Source: Escherichia coli O157 typing phage 14
Sequence record: KP869112
DNA: 64,000 bases
Reading direction: 5' to 3' (one strand)
Of the stretch, positions 24,334 through 47,574 are shown piece by piece (within the stretch, counting starts at the first letter, position 1; every line of letters begins with the position of its first letter). Below the pieces are notes generated by a model. The model saw only the letters and a list, made by a program, of their open reading frames with translations. It had not been told where the DNA came from and did not search any database. The position numbers and the translations under genes were made by a program.

Positions 24334-25218
24334 TTATTTCCCGTTAACTTTGTTGTAGTTTCCCTGCTCAGATGGGACTATGGTAGAAGGTCTTCCATAT
24401 TCCTGATAATACCAATCCGCAGCCGATTGGGTAACACCGTTTTCATCTGTCCACATCATAGATTTGTATGGCTGCCACTCCTCTGCAGCGTTTGTGGATG
24501 CAGTGTCTGCGAATGCTCCTGTGTCCCTCTTGTTACCTACGTTACTACCATTCTTACAGTCGTTGACAGCGCCTTTTTGTTGGGTCTTGCCTACTTTCTT
24601 AGGATTGCTGTATACAGTTGCATTAACAACCTTATTCAAGTAGAATGTGCGGAACTCTGTAAGTTCTACATCAAACACCATTGCAGCGCCTTCACCAACA
24701 GACTTGTTGGCAGAAAGACTGGTTATGATGTAGTTCTCAAGAAGTCTCTCCTCGGTAACCAAAGAAACCAACTGTCGCTTATTGATAATCTCAGTCAAAG
24801 CCTCCAATGCAGCGCCTGGTCGCATAGATGCTGCAGGGTTTTTAGAGTCAGTATTCCTATCAATGTAGTTTTGCTCATAGATTATGTGTGGGGATGTATT
24901 TACCCTACCAGTAAAAGAAAATACACCATCTTTAATTACGGCGTGGTCTGACAGGGTAGATTTATCTTCCACCGCAAACCCAGTCTTATCAACAGAATGT
25001 TTGAAAGAGTAATTCTCAACCTGATCGAAGATAATGGCAAGATCGTTAGTAAAGTTTTTACCCTTCATCTCCGTATTGCGACCACCATAGTTAAGACCGC
25101 TGACAAACATAGTGTACTTTACATCGCTTTCAGTTTGCTGCTCTGCCTTTTCAGCCTTTGGAGATTTAACCTCTTGAGGCTTGTACAGGTCTTTTTCATC
25201 AACTATATTGCTTGGCAT
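24334..25218 (-). CDS. tail protein downstream of tape measure (hypothetical)
   Basis: 294 aa ORF immediately after the tape measure gene. Confidence 0.4.
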   Translation of the reverse strand: MPSNIVDEKDLYKPQEVKSPKAEKAEQQTESDVKYTMFVSGLNYGGRNTEMKGKNFTNDLAIIFDQVENYSFKHSVDKTGFAVEDKSTLSDHAVIKDGVFSFTGRVNTSPHIIYEQNYIDRNTDSKNPAASMRPGAALEALTEIINKRQLVSLVTEERLLENYIITSLSANKSVGEGAAMVFDVELTEFRTFYLNKVVNATVYSNPKKVGKTQQKGAVNDCKNGSNVGNKRDTGAFADTASTNAAEEWQPYKSMMWTDENGVTQSAADWYYQEYGRPSTIVPSEQGNYNKVNGK

Positions 25219-31531: not shown

Positions 31532-32002
31532 TTACTGTCCGATTTTAAAGGTTGCAGATTCAAGCAGCACATCGTAATGCCGCATAGCCTCGTTGAAGCC
31601 TTTCTCTTGTGCCCACTGCTCGCTAACAGTGGGATTACTAAACTGCCCAGCCTCAATAACAAACTGGATAGCTTTGGCCCCTGTGTCCCCCATCTGCTTA
31701 AGAATAGCCTCTGCACTTGATCCTCTAGCCATAGCTCTCAACAATTTTTCTGTCAAGGTCTGTAGTTGAGTGCTGTGAAATGCAAAGGCTGTCTCCATGA
31801 AATTGCGAACAGGCAGCCCGTTCCAACCGAAGTTGTGAATGGCTGCCAATGTTGCCATATTTAAGCCTGACGGGTGAGGTTCGTCATAAAAGCCGTAGGT
31901 TATTGTTTTACTTTCAAGTCTCACAAGTTCTTTGTAGAAGCGATCTAAACGCTTTAGGTTGAACCTTGTTTGACATTTAACCTTTAGCATTATATCCCTC
32001 AC
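31532..32002 (-). CDS. head-tail joining protein (hypothetical)
   Basis: 156 aa ORF in the neck region. Confidence 0.4.
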   Translation of the reverse strand: MRDIMLKVKCQTRFNLKRLDRFYKELVRLESKTITYGFYDEPHPSGLNMATLAAIHNFGWNGLPVRNFMETAFAFHSTQLQTLTEKLLRAMARGSSAEAILKQMGDTGAKAIQFVIEAGQFSNPTVSEQWAQEKGFNEAMRHYDVLLESATFKIGQ

Positions 32003-43896: not shown

Positions 43897-44464
43897 AGTA
43901 AATCTTATTTAACATTACCTCATCCTTTGCAGAAAGGATATCAAGATATGCATCACCAAATCTTCCTGCAACAACCTCTGCATGATACATCACTTCGTTA
44001 ACATCGTCAAGAGTGATAACCGGATGACCATATCTTTCTGAATATTGTCTCAGGGTGCGATGTAACGAGTCGTCATCATATGCAGACTTTTTAATATCAC
44101 AAACACGACGAATAGCCTTGATGTCGAAAAAACCTGTGCGATACCACCCAAGAAAAAGGTTTCGTGCAGTGTCAACATCTACATTGATACCATCAAGAAC
44201 CTTATCTACAAGATAGCTGTCATCCTTTGGACCAGCGTCCTTAGTGCGAATGTAGTTGCCATCTTTTCCAGGCGATAGCTCCTTCTCATCCCCAACCTGC
44301 ATGCCATCATTTGGCGGTGTTAGCCACTTATCCGGATGCTTACGATCACGAGCGTTAGAATGATTACGCTGGAAACCGGGCTTCCACTTGAAAGTTTTCT
44401 CCATCTGTTCTTCATTCTGATAACGTTTTGCAATCTTTTCACGGTCATCTTTGCGTGAACCCAT
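43886..44464 (-). CDS. hypothetical protein
   Basis: 192 aa; strong RBS GAGGAGG before ATG at 44462-44464; preceded by a long GC-rich leader. Confidence 0.5.
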   Translation of the reverse strand: MGSRKDDREKIAKRYQNEEQMEKTFKWKPGFQRNHSNARDRKHPDKWLTPPNDGMQVGDEKELSPGKDGNYIRTKDAGPKDDSYLVDKVLDGINVDVDTARNLFLGWYRTGFFDIKAIRRVCDIKKSAYDDDSLHRTLRQYSERYGHPVITLDDVNEVMYHAEVVAGRFGDAYLDILSAKDEVMLNKIYYER

Positions 44465-44559
44465 AGCTGCCTCCTCTTCAAGTTATAGAAAAACTCACTG
44501 TATCGCTTTGTAACGAGCTTTTCTATCAAACTGGTGCGATTGCCTTACCTGGTATAGTT

Positions 44560-44860
44560 TATATAGCTGTGGGGCTATTTAGGGGCCTCCTTGTCCGTTT
44601 CCACACATAAACTTTATCCAAACTCGCGCGGGAGACTCTTAACCGACTCCTTACGGCGCTGGCAAGCTTTCGTCGGTGGTCCACATTAGTGCTCGGCCTT
44701 TGGCCTGCGCTATCGCTTCGCTCCCACACATGTTAACATACCTGCATGTATGCACTTCTGTTATTGTGTGCACTATGGAGGCCCGGCATCTCGCCCCTCG
44801 TAGGCGAGTGCCAATGAAGGGCCGACACTATCCATAGTAAGCAATAAATTTAAAACATGG
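44560..44860. other. GC-rich ORF-free island (about 300 nt); candidate structured ncRNA or long structured 5' leader
   Basis: No ORF of 60 codons or more on either strand; multiple local hairpins (CUCGCC-CCUCGUA-GGCGAG, GGCC-UUU-GGCC); lies between the AT-rich/palindrome region and the start of 43886..44464. Confidence 0.3.
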
Positions 44861-44967
44861 TACTTAGGATCTAGTATATTCTACATAAGTTAAGTATATG
44901 TACTTTAGTACCATAAGTACTAGATCTTTTATTTTTTATTATTTAGTTATTTTAGTTATATTCTTTA

Positions 44968-45094
44968 TGTGTCCGTATCACGGACAGTTAGTGTCCGTAT
45001 TACGGGCAGATGTGTCCGCGTGACGGACAGTAGTGTCCGTATTACGGGCAGATGTGTCCGCGTGACGGACAGTGGTGTCCGTATCACGGACAGT
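44968..45094. repeat. array of six 17-bp palindromic sites at 21-22 bp spacing
   Basis: TGTCCGTATCACGGACA (44970, 45076), TGTCCGTATTACGGGCA (44992, 45034) and TGTCCGCGTGACGGACA (45013, 45055), arranged A-B-C-B-C-A; flanked by an AT-rich tract with GTACT and TTTAGTTAT repeats (44870-44968). Confidence 0.85.
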
Positions 45095-45167
45095 TGATAG
45101 CTTCTGTCCCATATCGAACATAAAACATACGAATCCTTATAGTACAGATATTTAAGTTTTTACTGGT

Positions 45168-45518
45168 CTAACCAGTTGTTGACATTCGAATAACTTCTTC
45201 TGGTGGCAAAACTTTGGAAAATGTGCATCTTTTACCTCTCCCCTGTGTGGATGTTTCAACCACTCCTGCACATTCTAAAGTTTTAACGCACGCTGCTGCT
45301 TTTGTTTTCTTTATCCCAACATCTGCTGCAATTTTCCTTGTGCTGGGTGTGAAGCGTGAATTTCCTCCAAGTTTATACCAGTTGTGCAGGTAGCAGTATA
45401 CGATCTTGTCATACAAGTCAAGAACAACAACCTCCCCAGTTGTGTCATTCAAAACTTTTGACATAGACAGTATTTCAAGGGGGACTTTAAGATATAGCAG
45501 CTTATCCCCATCTTTCAT
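45168..45518 (-). CDS. putative helix-turn-helix DNA-binding protein
   Basis: 116 aa; segment STRKIAADVGIKKTKAAACVKTLECAGVV has HTH character; gene ends about 75 bp from the palindrome array. Confidence 0.45.
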   Translation of the reverse strand: MKDGDKLLYLKVPLEILSMSKVLNDTTGEVVVLDLYDKIVYCYLHNWYKLGGNSRFTPSTRKIAADVGIKKTKAAACVKTLECAGVVETSTQGRGKRCTFSKVLPPEEVIRMSTTG

Positions 45519-45565
45519 ATCTCCTGATTCTCCTTGTGTGGCAATTTTCTTTAAAATAGCAGGGA

Positions 45566-46120
45566 TTACTCCCCGCTGTCAATAGCAAAACTCATTGCAA
45601 TACGGTATGCCTCTTCTAATGGTAAGAGTCTCCCCCACACATCCCAACCGACATCAAGCTGCCTGCCAAACAACTGTTGTGTGGTTCCGTGAGCATGACC
45701 GAACAGTTGGACTGATCCGTGAGGCTTTCTGTTCCACTTTGCAAATTGGTAATGGCTCATACAGATCAAATTCTTGTTGTGGCGAAGCTCGTAATAATCT
45801 ACAACCTCGTGATAGAACTCTTTCATAATTCTGACAGTCGTCCTTGTGTCATGGTTGCCACGAACAAGAATAATATGTCCGTTCAACATATTTAGAATAT
45901 CTGGAAGTAATTTGTTGATATTCTTATCATTAGTGCACGCAATATCTCCCAAGTGGAACACAGTGTCTGCAGGTGACACAACAGAGTTCCACTCGGCGAT
46001 GATTCCCGCATTCATACTGTCAAGATTGTGATCATACTGAGATCTGTGTTTTTGACATGAATCAAACTCCATGACCCGCTGGTGGAGAAAGTGTGTGTCG
46101 CTTGTTACAAAGTATTTCAT
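45566..46120 (-). CDS. calcineurin-like metallophosphoesterase
   Basis: Start reassigned to ATG 46118-46120 (MKYFVTSDTHF, RBS GAGGAA); motifs SDTHF, LGDI, RGNHD and FGHAHG are the metallophosphoesterase signature. Confidence 0.6.
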   Translation of the reverse strand: MKYFVTSDTHFLHQRVMEFDSCQKHRSQYDHNLDSMNAGIIAEWNSVVSPADTVFHLGDIACTNDKNINKLLPDILNMLNGHIILVRGNHDTRTTVRIMKEFYHEVVDYYELRHNKNLICMSHYQFAKWNRKPHGSVQLFGHAHGTTQQLFGRQLDVGWDVWGRLLPLEEAYRIAMSFAIDSGE

Positions 46121-46127
46121 ACATTCC

Positions 46128-46538
46128 TCATTTAAGTTTAATGCAGTTTTTAAGCTGGCGTTCCATACGATCCACAACCTTGTCTGGAACATCATGAATG
46201 CTTTTATTACCGTGGCGGTTTTCAACCACGATCACGGTATAACTATACCCATGACTGATTGCCATGTCAACATATTCCTGCACATGTTTTTCTTTTGTAA
46301 ACGTATTACTTACCACGATACGGTCGTATCCCATACGCATCATATCTTCTACGTTATCTTTGCACCATTTTGCTGCGAGTGTTACTTTACTTGCATCCCA
46401 GTTGTAATTGCCGTCATCGTCATACCAGAACATGTCGTTCTCAAAATGTGGATACAGACCTTCTAAAGATAGCGCATTTGCCAGTGTTGATTTGCCAGAC
46501 CCTGGCAGACCACGCACGATATATAGCATTTTAGACAT
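46128..46538 (-). CDS. P-loop kinase (polynucleotide kinase-like)
   Basis: Start reassigned to ATG 46536-46538 (RBS GGAGGA); Walker A GLPGSGKST; about 137 aa. Confidence 0.55.
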   Translation of the reverse strand: MSKMLYIVRGLPGSGKSTLANALSLEGLYPHFENDMFWYDDDGNYNWDASKVTLAAKWCKDNVEDMMRMGYDRIVVSNTFTKEKHVQEYVDMAISHGYSYTVIVVENRHGNKSIHDVPDKVVDRMERQLKNCIKLK

Positions 46539-46659
46539 AGCAATCCTCCGTTTTAATTTTAATGATAGTATACCTAACTGTTTTGTTAATTTCAAGTGTT
46601 GACACTAGGTTATTTGTGTGGCAGGATAGACTGACAAAATGACAAATGAGGAACGTATG

Positions 46660-47574
46660 ATGAAGTATTTTAATGCAGATGACCTAGTAGACAAAGGTCT
46701 TGTAACCAGTCGGTATTATCCAGATCTTGGATTAAAGATCTATAAATATGCCAGAAAAGTATTCTACAACAATCTGTGGCATTTGTCTCCGCGTTTACTG
46801 GAGTGCCGAGGTATTGTTGTTGGCAATGAGGGGAATGTTGTGGCATGGCCTTTCACAAAAGTATTCAACTTAGGAGAAAACTCCACCAACCTACCGGACA
46901 GTAAACTTGTTACTGCGGTAGAGAAAAAGAACGGATTCCTCGGTGTGGTATCATCTCATAAAGGTGAACTATTGTTCTCAACAACCGGGTCTCTTGATTC
47001 TCCATATTGTAACCTTGCAAAGGAAACCATCCAAGAGCAATGTGGTAATTTAGATCTTATCAAGAAGGTTATGGGCAATGAAAACATGACATTCATGTTT
47101 GAAATTTGTCACCCTTCAGATCCGCATATTGTTCAAGAAGACCATGGCGCATATTTGATAGGTTGCAGATATAATGATTCTGGAATAATGCTACCAGAAG
47201 CAGCTTTAGATGGGATTGCCAAATACCTTGGTGCAAAACGTCCTCACACTGTGCGTGAAATCCCGTTCAGCTATGCAAAAGAATTAGCTGCAGAAACAAG
47301 GGGCGAAGGGTATATGATCCGTAAGCCTTACTACCCTTATGACCTGCAGCTGAAGATCAAGTCTCCATACTATTTGGCACGGAAGGCCGTAATGAGAGGT
47401 AAAGCATGGAAGATTTGGGATGACGATATTTTTAAACGTGTTGACGAGGAGTTTTACGGTATGGTAAAATTTATTCGTAGCAACTATACAGAAGATGTGT
47501 GGAATTGCTTATTAGAGCAGGAGCGTCGCGAGATACTGGACTGCTATTTCCACAACGAGGACTATATGCAATGA
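46660..47574 (+). CDS. RNA ligase (nucleotidyltransferase superfamily)
   Basis: Motif I KKNGF (KxxG lysine) and motif IV GEGYMIRK; start taken as the ATG at 46660 (RBS GAGGAA 6 nt upstream), whereas the track starts at 46639. Confidence 0.55.
   Translation: MKYFNADDLVDKGLVTSRYYPDLGLKIYKYARKVFYNNLWHLSPRLLECRGIVVGNEGNVVAWPFTKVFNLGENSTNLPDSKLVTAVEKKNGFLGVVSSHKGELLFSTTGSLDSPYCNLAKETIQEQCGNLDLIKKVMGNENMTFMFEICHPSDPHIVQEDHGAYLIGCRYNDSGIMLPEAALDGIAKYLGAKRPHTVREIPFSYAKELAAETRGEGYMIRKPYYPYDLQLKIKSPYYLARKAVMRGKAWKIWDDDIFKRVDEEFYGMVKFIRSNYTEDVWNCLLEQERREILDCYFHNEDYMQ

Follow-up and report, generated by a model that had tools for sequence, protein, structure and literature searches.

The RK2 origin oriV comprises iterons, an AT-rich region and a GC-rich region, and the oriV of RSF1010 combines iterons with GC and AT segments and with the priming hairpins ssiA and ssiB, which are read by a plasmid-specific primase. 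In lambdoid phages, the DNA-binding domain of the initiator O and its cognate repeats at ori are exchanged as a cassette with the flanks staying in place, and the PLE satellite brings its own RepA and iterons to the replisome of its helper. Origin-linked structured transcripts are also known, in the form of ColE1 RNA II and the R-loop primers of T4 oriF and oriG. We know of no shared structured flank for either lambda or PLE.

Here we describe a GC-rich island in the genome of Escherichia coli O157 typing phage 14 (sequence record KP869112; the 64,000 nucleotides analysed are referred to below as the window). Positions 43800–45600 match 119 phage records at 90–99% identity, nearly all of them Escherichia phages of the genus Vequintavirus, and the window is a Vequintavirus (rV5-like) genome. 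Eighteen of the matching records carry the label ‘Campylobacter phage’. Both the origin and the packaging site of the rV5-like phages, which are widely employed in therapy and typing, are unmapped, and the region around the island offers a testable candidate origin module. The island and its neighbours are as follows:

43886–44464, minus strand: ORF77, 192 amino acids, directly downstream of the island (PHROG 12226)
44465–44835, minus strand: the conserved non-coding island in full, bounded by the AT-rich tract and the ORF77 ATG
44836–44968, no strand assigned: AT-rich tract of 133 nt with 20% GC, a candidate DNA-unwinding element
44969–45095, no strand assigned: six iteron-like 21-nt repeats, imperfect palindromes (GTGTCCGTATCACGGACAGTT) spaced at 21–22 nt
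45168–45518, minus strand: ORF79, a 116 amino acid winged-helix, initiator-like protein (PHROG 12838, ‘replication initiation protein’, E = 5e-80)

The locus resembles RK2 and RSF1010 in its succession of repeats, AT-rich tract and GC-rich hairpin segment and in having a winged-helix initiator. It differs from them in the size of the GC-rich part (250–370 nt in the phage as against 30–70 nt), in the presence of a junction-like core, a near-invariant 24-nt loop and a motif, UGUGUGGG, that is found on one strand only, and in that the core, when treated as single-stranded DNA, folds no better than shuffled sequences. As with ColE1 RNA II and T4 oriF and oriG, the would-be transcript crosses an unwinding element and is G-rich (28% G and 22% C on the minus strand of the island) and highly folded, but in the phage we identified no promoter, no RNase H site and no G-run that could form a hybrid, and there is no sequence similarity. 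The island may be described as an accessory structured element at a putative iteron-type origin, or as a structured leader, without being assigned to a family.

An origin-like neighbourhood

The minus strand reads, in order, ORF79, the six 21-bp repeats, the 20%-GC tract, the island and ORF77, and the same order and orientation of initiator-like gene, repeats, AT tract and island recurs in the sampled Vequintavirus genomes. The first-pass annotation of this DNA had placed an AT-rich tract and six operator-like palindromes upstream of the island. Both were found, at 44836–44968 and 44969–45095, and the palindromes are indeed six in number, if imperfect, but with a winged-helix gene and an AT-rich tract beside them they look more like the iterons of a putative origin than like operators. 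Iteron origins are recognised by at least three phased direct repeats, an adjacent AT-rich tract and a co-varying initiator-like gene beside the repeats, all of which are seen here. The initiator names attached to ORF79 are profile annotations: RefSeq calls it ‘replication initiation protein’, and in Pfam the HTH_36 and DUF6945 families score just below their cut-offs. The paper describing the rV5 genome sought an origin by skew analysis only and does not discuss the island.

A divergent IMG/VR contig, L003 (L006 and L026 are one and the same contig), has retained the genes for Pnk and the phosphoesterase along with the island and ORF77, the last with a protein 82% identical to that of the window. 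The sequence between the phosphoesterase gene and the island, which contains the initiator-like ORF and the repeats, is unrelated to that of the window: ORF79 is replaced by a different winged-helix-like ORF of 143 amino acids, followed by five unrelated 20-nt repeats, then an AT-rich tract, then the island. By analogy with the lambdoid ori/O cassettes, in which flanks are likewise kept whilst initiator and repeats are swapped, this would represent exchange of an initiator together with its cognate iterons. Unlike the lambdoid arrangement, the phage origin-like region lies outside the initiator gene.

Across two phage lineages and the nine plasmids described below, the only constant partner of the island is the module of repeats plus AT tract, which never changes side or orientation, whereas the downstream gene, the initiator and the repeats themselves all vary among the elements that bear it. 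On these grounds we favour the view, to which we would assign a probability of about 0.4, that the island is a strand-specific folded non-coding cis element that is coupled to origin function and has been copied by satellites. ORF77 is not a constant partner. Its relatives fall into six clusters only, and a 50%-identical homologue in another phage contig has a gene 60 nt upstream and no island. The structure predicted for ORF77 has a pLDDT of 52.8 and gave no significant fold match. It had been described as strongly expressed, for which the sequence offers nothing beyond a good ribosome-binding site (GAGGAGG).

Conservation, distribution and coding potential

The GC content of positions 44560–44860 is 51.2% as against a window mean of 43.7% (sd 3.1, 301-nt windows), a level attained by only 0.96% of 301-nt windows, and rises to 61% in the core (44625–44730) and 70% in a 5′ hairpin (44780–44823). 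The first-pass annotation had drawn attention to these 301 nt on account of their higher GC content, here placed in the top 1%, and their lack of any ORF of 60 codons or more, and was right on both counts: the longest overlapping ORFs encode 56 amino acids (44559–44729, minus strand, GTG start) and 53 amino acids (plus strand). The GC-rich gap is therefore real, but the conserved element is larger, running from about 44835 to the ribosome-binding site and ATG of ORF77 at 44464, and is kept at 90–97% identity in 118 Vequintavirus records.

In divergent relatives the core is better conserved than the neighbouring gene. Compared with L003, identity is 87.7% in the core (44625–44734), 92% in the leader (44465–44539) and 82.6% in ORF77 DNA; compared with phage Aya (L007), the corresponding values are 95.5, 94.7 and 90.0%. 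Overall, the leader is 92–100% conserved, and in this comparison 44540–44624 is the least conserved segment. Judged by these identities, the island is clearly under purifying selection.

The distribution of the element is narrow. Exact-pattern scans of IMG/VR, metagenomes and GTDB genomes returned only Vequintavirus-like contigs, L003 and chance matches; the metagenome pattern began with GACGAAAGC and so was blind to the satellite variant GCCGAAAGC. In other genera of the Vequintavirinae, represented by 4MG and a Klebsiella phage, the syntenic locus is filled with coding sequence and has no comparable module. Apart from the plasmids described below, the element is absent from E. coli plasmids and phages, as judged from complete E. 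coli genomes, PLSDB and phage records. This restriction to rV5-like phages and the satellite-like plasmids argues against a host factor as the sole partner of the island and in favour of a phage-specific one. In the literature we came across no publication dealing with the island, with transcription maps of Vequintavirus or with the plasmids described below.

Small ORFs have been annotated within the island: ORF78 (56 amino acids, GTG start) in the rV5 record and two in BASEL phage records, one of them of 31 amino acids. The idea that the island encodes small proteins draws on these annotations, which include both the 56 and the 31 amino acid ORF, and on the ORF78 frame being open in most close relatives, but it fares badly in a codon-position test on 12 relatives. 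Variable columns in ORF78 are spread 15/19/17 over the three codon positions, with 41 non-synonymous against 17 synonymous single changes, and the frame is broken by a stop at codon 3 in phage B9-1 (L009) and by an internal stop in L003. The 31 amino acid ORF gives 6/6/6 and is destroyed in L003. ORF77, the control, gives 35/20/88, as expected of a real gene. ORF78 has no evident ribosome-binding site ahead of its GTG and no Pfam or PHROG match. Neither small ORF displays the codon-like conservation that the first-pass annotation had named as grounds for abandoning its proposal; on this test the island is non-coding, and a small-protein function is very improbable.

A failure to match tmRNA, RNase P RNA or a group I core had also been remarked upon, and a search against the Rfam 15 covariance models agrees. 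At gathering thresholds the whole window yields six tRNAs only, with nothing in the island, and with E values up to 10 over 44300–45200 the best hit, rli43, scores 24.5 bits where the threshold is 100 and lies mostly within the AT-rich tract. This negative result covers tmRNA, RNase P, group I and II introns, GOLLD, ROOL, riboswitches and small ribozymes. ARAGORN found no tRNA or tmRNA in the island and seven tRNA genes at 41776–42588. The island resembles GOLLD, ROOL and the T4 species 1 and 2 RNAs in being phage-encoded, ORF-free, structured and in a transcription unit shared with a tRNA cluster. It differs from them in having no Rfam match and in being separated from the tRNAs by 1.9 kb and five protein genes. 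The link to the tRNA cluster (~1.9 kb downstream, same orientation) is one of position only.

Helices, loops and covariation

The island can be divided into the following parts:

44780–44823, minus strand: 5′ hairpin H1 (GGCCC/GGCA/CUCGCC-loop-GGCGAG/UGCC/GGGCC), invariant in the sampled phages
44735–44779, minus strand: variable, dispensable hairpin region, the least conserved part of the island
44625–44730, minus strand: core, comprising a candidate closing helix (P1), internal hairpins and junction strands, the most conserved block
44723–44730, minus strand: UGUGUGGG motif, the same 8-mer as the core of rrn boxC (UCUGUGUGGG)
44642–44677, minus strand: P3 hairpin, ACCGAC (44677–44672) with GUCGGU (44647–44642), with the 24-nt loop GAAAGCUUGCCAGCGCCGUAAGGA
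44573–44585, minus strand: conserved motif CCCCUAAAUAGCC (CCCCCUAAAUGGCC in satellites), collinear in phage and satellites
44485–44526, minus strand: 3′ hairpin P5, AUAGAAAAGC with GUUUUUCUAU, ~10 nt before the ribosome-binding site (44470–44476)

Both hairpins named in the first-pass annotation are found on the minus strand, as CUCGCC-UACGAGG-GGCGAG (44808–44790) and GGCC-AAA-GGCC (44705–44695), and the fold of the whole island is more stable than those of shuffled sequences (z = −3.15 on the minus strand, −2.20 on the plus strand). An RNAalifold consensus for the close phage set gave an implausible global fold because variation within that set is too low. Much of what follows comes instead from comparison of the phages with L003 and with the satellite-like plasmids.

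Three types of core can be distinguished, one in the phages and two in the satellites, where type A is found in five elements and type B in four. All three have their outer strands (UGUGUGGG… and …CCCGCGCG) in common, as well as the junction strands AAUGUGGA (44687–44680 in the window) and UAAG, and differ in their internal hairpins. P2 is similar in types A and B, two of its pairs being altered on both sides, and type B, with the head GTCCGGATAAGAGACTTCTGTTTCCAATCCGGAC, carries an unrelated 8-bp hairpin at the position of P3. The core therefore looks like a junction with exchangeable arms.

P3 provides the clearest covariation. In 13 distinct sequences the helix is 100% paired and its loop is invariant except at one position (U or G; 44651 in the window). 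Type A satellites have GCUGCC/GGCAGC, with three of the six pairs differing from phage on both sides, changes that represent essentially one evolutionary split. The closing pair is A-U in six sequences, G.U in two (the intermediates L003 and L007) and G-C in five. Controls in which one partner was slid by 1–3 columns were 22–66% paired, with zero double changes, and an alternative helix and a mini-hairpin tested for covariation scored no better than controls.

H1, which is missing from the other satellites, is retained in satellite L030 with two pairs altered on both sides, GGCA/UGCC becoming GUCA/UGAC and CUCGCC/GGCGAG becoming CUCUCC/GGAGAG. P5 is nearly invariant in the sampled phages, L003 included, whilst in satellites the stem is CUCUAAA/UUUAGAG, again altered on both sides relative to phage; the loop begins UCGUUACAAAG in phage and UCGCGUUAGAA in satellites, with UCG(C)GUUA shared. 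P3, H1, P2 and P5 all point to selection on folding, and the comparisons show, at the level of sequence, helices kept by compensatory changes alongside one long loop and two junction strands kept in sequence.

The closing helix P1 pairs UGUGUGGGAG (44730–44721) with CUCCCGCGCG (44634–44625) through a duplex that includes three G.U pairs. It beats shuffled partners in the phages (at most 4 of 200 shuffles do as well), with the exception of L009 (37 of 200). No such advantage is seen in type A satellites, in which an alternative pairing of UGUGGGUC with GGCCCACA is available. For this reason P1 is accepted only tentatively. In the variable region, rV5 (L001) and Pr121LW (L008) share an 18-nt deletion between the repeats GTGCAC and GTGCAT. 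Two further candidates were rejected: a DnaA box (TTATCCAAA, 44612–44620, plus strand, 8/9 match) that is not conserved in relatives, and CTAAATAcCcc as a ‘late promoter’, which is not recurrent in the window and is absent from the rV5 paper.

Satellite-like plasmids

When complete E. coli genomes and PLSDB were searched with the island by sensitive BLAST, two blocks of ~87% identity came up in circular E. coli plasmids of 13.2–13.7 kb, and further searches brought the set to nine E. coli elements with a homologous core block. A 39.6-kb plasmid record, L031, proves to be a trimer. Strains E275a and RM10740 are examples of carriers. Among the products of the plasmids are a tape measure protein, baseplate proteins of the rV5 kind and a major capsid protein that matches PHROG 29 (E = 1.5e-20); two of their proteins are 50 and 45% identical to the phage products at 24532–25155 and 31562–31984 of the window. 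They also encode helix-turn-helix proteins of ~300 amino acids; the two that were tested, from L051 and L030, hit ‘replication initiation O-like’ profiles as well as HTH_36 or MarR. Neither a terminase nor a portal gene has been annotated. The combination of capsid, tape measure and other phage-like proteins with an O-like initiator of their own and no annotated terminase or portal leads us to infer that the plasmids are satellites or mini-phages of rV5-like phages. In carrying their own initiator-like gene and repeats they recall PLE, with the helper relationship here being an inferred one.

Each plasmid has an ORF-free region of 2.2–2.9 kb. In the satellites examined in detail, on the strand equivalent to the minus strand of the window, this region runs from the element’s own repeats through a conserved AT-rich segment (CTAATAGATAAAG…) to GC-rich hairpin modules that include the core, then CCCCCTAAATGGCC and a P5-like hairpin, after which come consensus sigma-70 promoters, a small ORF and the initiator operon. 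At least six different repeat sets occur among the nine plasmids (in L051, five 23-nt repeats at the equivalent place), and every set examined differs from that of the phage. The gene that comes next is unrelated and has consensus promoters of its own, placed after the element. Next to the AT tract, the other strand carries two terminator-like hairpins, and long alternating purine–pyrimidine tracts follow the core. Of the 2.2-kb non-coding region of a satellite, nothing but the island core matches any phage record, and it does so at one place per Vequintavirus genome.

How might such an element work? If it is coupled to origin function, the initiator would open the AT-rich tract, or RNA polymerase from the ORF79 promoter would cross it, and the minus-sense strand of the island would then fold, either as a transcript or as a displaced DNA strand. 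The folded core could serve as a landing or priming signal for a factor common to phage and satellites, most plausibly part of the phage replisome, and satellites that kept a copy beside their own origin would be amplified upon infection by the helper. The origin-like context, the apparent cassette exchange in L003, the satellite layout, the core as uniquely shared DNA, the inconstancy of ORF77, the covarying helices, the one-stranded motif and the restricted distribution all argue for this reading. Against it, the core as single-stranded DNA gives z-scores of only −0.28 and +0.27, the island is probably part of an mRNA (see below), and the double changes are essentially those of one split. 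Head type (A or B) also assorts independently of initiator domains and repeats, with L051 and L055 sharing the same initiator N-domain and repeats and differing in head type, and the type B core has no counterpart in the phage collection. From this last result, either copying of the helper is not universal or the helper of type B is not among the known phages.

A broader proposal, which we regard as rather doubtful, is that the virulent myophage and its satellites share a structured adaptor, the junction core with its near-invariant 24-nt loop, beside otherwise unrelated, cassette-exchangeable origins, that this adaptor recruits the replisome of the helper or another phage factor, with types A and B reflecting helper specificity, and that the plasmids form a new class of extrachromosomal satellites of lytic coliphages. 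If the plasmids are indeed satellites, persisting in plasmid form, of a myophage that is strictly lytic, they would represent a new kind of phage satellite, and the shared element would be the first clue to how they plug into their helper. As by-products go, they are more surprising than the island itself.

Satellites must also be packaged, and a further explanation holds that the island is the pac site from which headful packaging starts, copied by the satellites for their own packaging. Vequintaviruses are reported to have circularly permuted, headful-packaged genomes with no mapped pac site, satellites would need a packaging signal of the helper type, the core is the only non-coding DNA they have in common with phage, and the trimeric L031 record suggests concatemers. 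We nonetheless consider a pac function improbable. Sites of this kind usually lie in or beside the small terminase gene. The satellite comparison covered the 2.2-kb non-coding part, so that a pac site within coding sequence would escape it; type B satellites do without the phage-type P3; a duplex site for terminase would require neither intra-strand pairing nor a one-stranded motif; and the constant neighbouring repeats and AT tract would be left unexplained.

Strand, chemistry and the leader alternative

The genes around the island are all on the minus strand and no terminator-like site was found on either strand at 43800–45600 (the criterion being a GC-rich hairpin with a U-run), from which it follows that the island is probably part of an mRNA. 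A promoter scan found no usable promoter in the island and no convincing sigma-70 promoter. A place within an mRNA fits equally well with the principal rival to an origin-coupled element, namely a structured RNA that belongs to the untranslated portion of the transcript running from ORF79 to the tRNAs, serves as a leader or in processing and takes no direct part in replication. It might shield ~700 nt of untranslated RNA from Rho and RNases; it might form a processing stem like the rrn leader–trailer helix, using the boxC-like UGUGUGGG in Watson–Crick and wobble pairings; or the P5 hairpin beside the ribosome-binding site might control translation of ORF77. We view this explanation as possible, though on the unlikely side.

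An RNA acting in the minus sense is suggested by several of the above features, including the orientation shared with all flanking genes, the lack of terminators, the need of P1 for G.U pairs, the run of A-U, G.U and G-C at the closing pair of P3 and the one-stranded motif. For the window core folded as RNA, the minimum free energy structure coincides with the centroid and z is −2.33 on the minus strand as against −0.98 on the plus strand; with DNA parameters there is no excess stability (z = −0.28 and +0.27, no better than shuffles). A single-strand initiation (ssi) or primosome assembly signal would call for a stable fold of one DNA strand; hairpins are present and covary, whilst these DNA z-scores show no added stability. 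A leader would also account for the junction architecture with its conserved junction strands and exchangeable hairpins, the 92–100% conservation of 44465–44539 and the tRNA genes downstream.

Other observations are neutral or point the other way. When z is averaged over 12 cores, the plus strand (−1.97) scores as well as the minus strand (−1.57), and hairpins with a single mismatch have G.U in 11 cases and A.C in 9. Mismatch typing, the free energy comparison and the RNA and DNA z-scores are mutually inconsistent on strand and chemistry. The downstream operon of the satellites has its promoters after the element, and the terminator-like hairpins there point in the opposite direction, whilst the purine–pyrimidine tracts do not speak for a minus-sense RNA. 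ORF77 homologues can exist without an island, and a leader leaves the constant position of the island after an origin-like module unexplained. Of the original suggestion of a structured non-coding RNA or leader, then, the non-coding character, the covarying helices and conservation above that of the neighbouring gene are upheld; as to its action as RNA, the tests of strand and chemistry disagree. Such weight as is not taken up by the origin, leader, pac and small-protein readings goes to something else.

The UGUGUGGG motif bears on both the origin-coupled element and the leader. A partial second copy, UGUGUGG, is found at 44601–44607 (minus strand). Satellite structured regions contain one to three exact copies on one strand and none on the other, with ~0.02 expected; TGTGTGGG occurs on one strand only. 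Each satellite copy checked has a nearby partner, either CCCACA (Watson–Crick) or CCCGCGC (wobble). The full boxC sequence is exact in five satellites and agrees with the phage at 8 of 10 positions, the loose boxC pattern being no more frequent in the phage window than expected by chance. In rRNA operons, boxC lies in the 16S leader–trailer helix, where Watson–Crick and wobble pairs are interchangeable (PMC10250234), and the resemblance of the island to rrn leaders and nut sites lies in having the boxC core in Watson–Crick/wobble helices within untranslated RNA upstream of stable-RNA genes. It differs from them in the order of its elements, in having no consensus boxA at the right distance and no identified N-like protein or boxB, and in that the loose motif is unenriched in the phage window. 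We take the boxC likeness of UGUGUGGG as a lead only. Neither form of boxA (UGCUCUUUAACAA or CGCUCUUA) is matched within 44465–44835 at up to three mismatches, which counts against a leader of the rrn kind; the closest ungapped boxA-like sequence in the island is AGCUCGUUACAAA (9/13 positions), and near-matches of this sort are about as common as chance predicts. Window-wide, 43 boxA-like sites were observed against 28.7 expected, a marginal excess that is reached by 2 of 100 shuffles.

Satellite-like plasmids

Nine E. coli plasmids that carry a diverged core of the island (the conserved non-coding hairpin-rich element) appear to be satellites of rV5-like phages, plasmid-borne and so far undescribed:

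L030, L031 and L051-L057, satellite-like E. coli plasmids: NZ_CP020521, NZ_CP043822, NZ_CP035869, CP148565, CP134895, NZ_CP178698, NZ_CP074841, NZ_AP045055, NZ_JBUCKS010000006

They are circular molecules of 13.2-13.7 kb (one is a 39.6-kb trimer as assembled). Of 5426 complete E. coli genomes, 7 contain such a plasmid. Besides an O-like initiator, they encode a major capsid protein, a protein of the tape measure type and rV5-like baseplate proteins, the last with 45-50% amino acid identity to the products of window 24532-25155 and 31562-31984, and they have an ORF-free region of 2.2-2.9 kb; no terminase or portal gene is present among the annotations of the nine.

Just 3' of the core in the satellite loci (L055, L030 and L031, for example) lie long, perfectly alternating purine-pyrimidine tracts such as CGCGCGCGTGCACACATGTATATAC. 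The alternation is conserved whilst the sequence itself varies from element to element, and the tracts could form Z-DNA or cruciforms.

An AT-hook-like motif is found both in the phage and in several satellite initiators:

42685-43023, minus strand: ORF74, with the N-terminal start MADTTKKRRRRGRPLKEE and its AT-hook-like RGRP motif

Several satellite initiators (e.g. L051 5517-6437) contain PRRGRPVK. Another possible reading of the start of ORF74 is an arginine-rich motif for RNA binding. ORF74 and the satellite initiators with an RGRP-type motif may bind the AT-rich tract.

Variation among relatives

Comparison of the window with a divergent phage contig (L003, IMGVR_UViG_3300010279_000001, 1319-1878) reveals that the initiator-like gene and the repeats have been swapped as a cassette, the surrounding Pnk gene, phosphoesterase gene, island and ORF77 being retained. 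Within the island, 18 nt (44752-44769, minus strand) flanked by the direct repeats GTGCAC and GTGCAT are absent from rV5 and Pr121LW, and the hairpin at this position is therefore dispensable. In phage Alma (OV101294) the island has single-base indels, and a frameshift in ORF77 has led to its annotation as two CDS; both seem to be errors of assembly, and Alma was for this reason left out of the tests.

Neighbouring features

The origin-like module is adjoined by RNA-repair-like genes and has a tRNA cluster downstream:

45566-47574: polynucleotide kinase, phosphoesterase and RnlA-type RNA ligase genes, the ligase gene on the opposite strand to the other two
42021-42119, minus strand: 99-nt tRNA-like gene between tRNA-Thr and tRNA-Ser
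43085-43300, minus strand: a second stretch that is GC-rich (55%) and free of ORFs, flanked by ORF75 and the ORF74 promoter

The tRNA-like gene, called by ARAGORN with a 4-base anticodon (atcc), scores 35.5 bits against the Rfam tRNA model; the rV5 record has no annotation for it. The second GC-rich stretch folds no better than its shuffles (z = -1.26) and matched nothing in Rfam.

Doubtful record labels

Eighteen MG0656xx records labelled 'Campylobacter phage' share 95-97% identity with the E. coli Vequintavirus region of the window, and their host labels are therefore doubtful. The PLSDB entry CP057073.1, listed as an 'E. coli plasmid' of 137.6 kb and with 97% identity over 99% of the island, is, to judge by that match and its phage-like length, probably a Vequintavirus genome.
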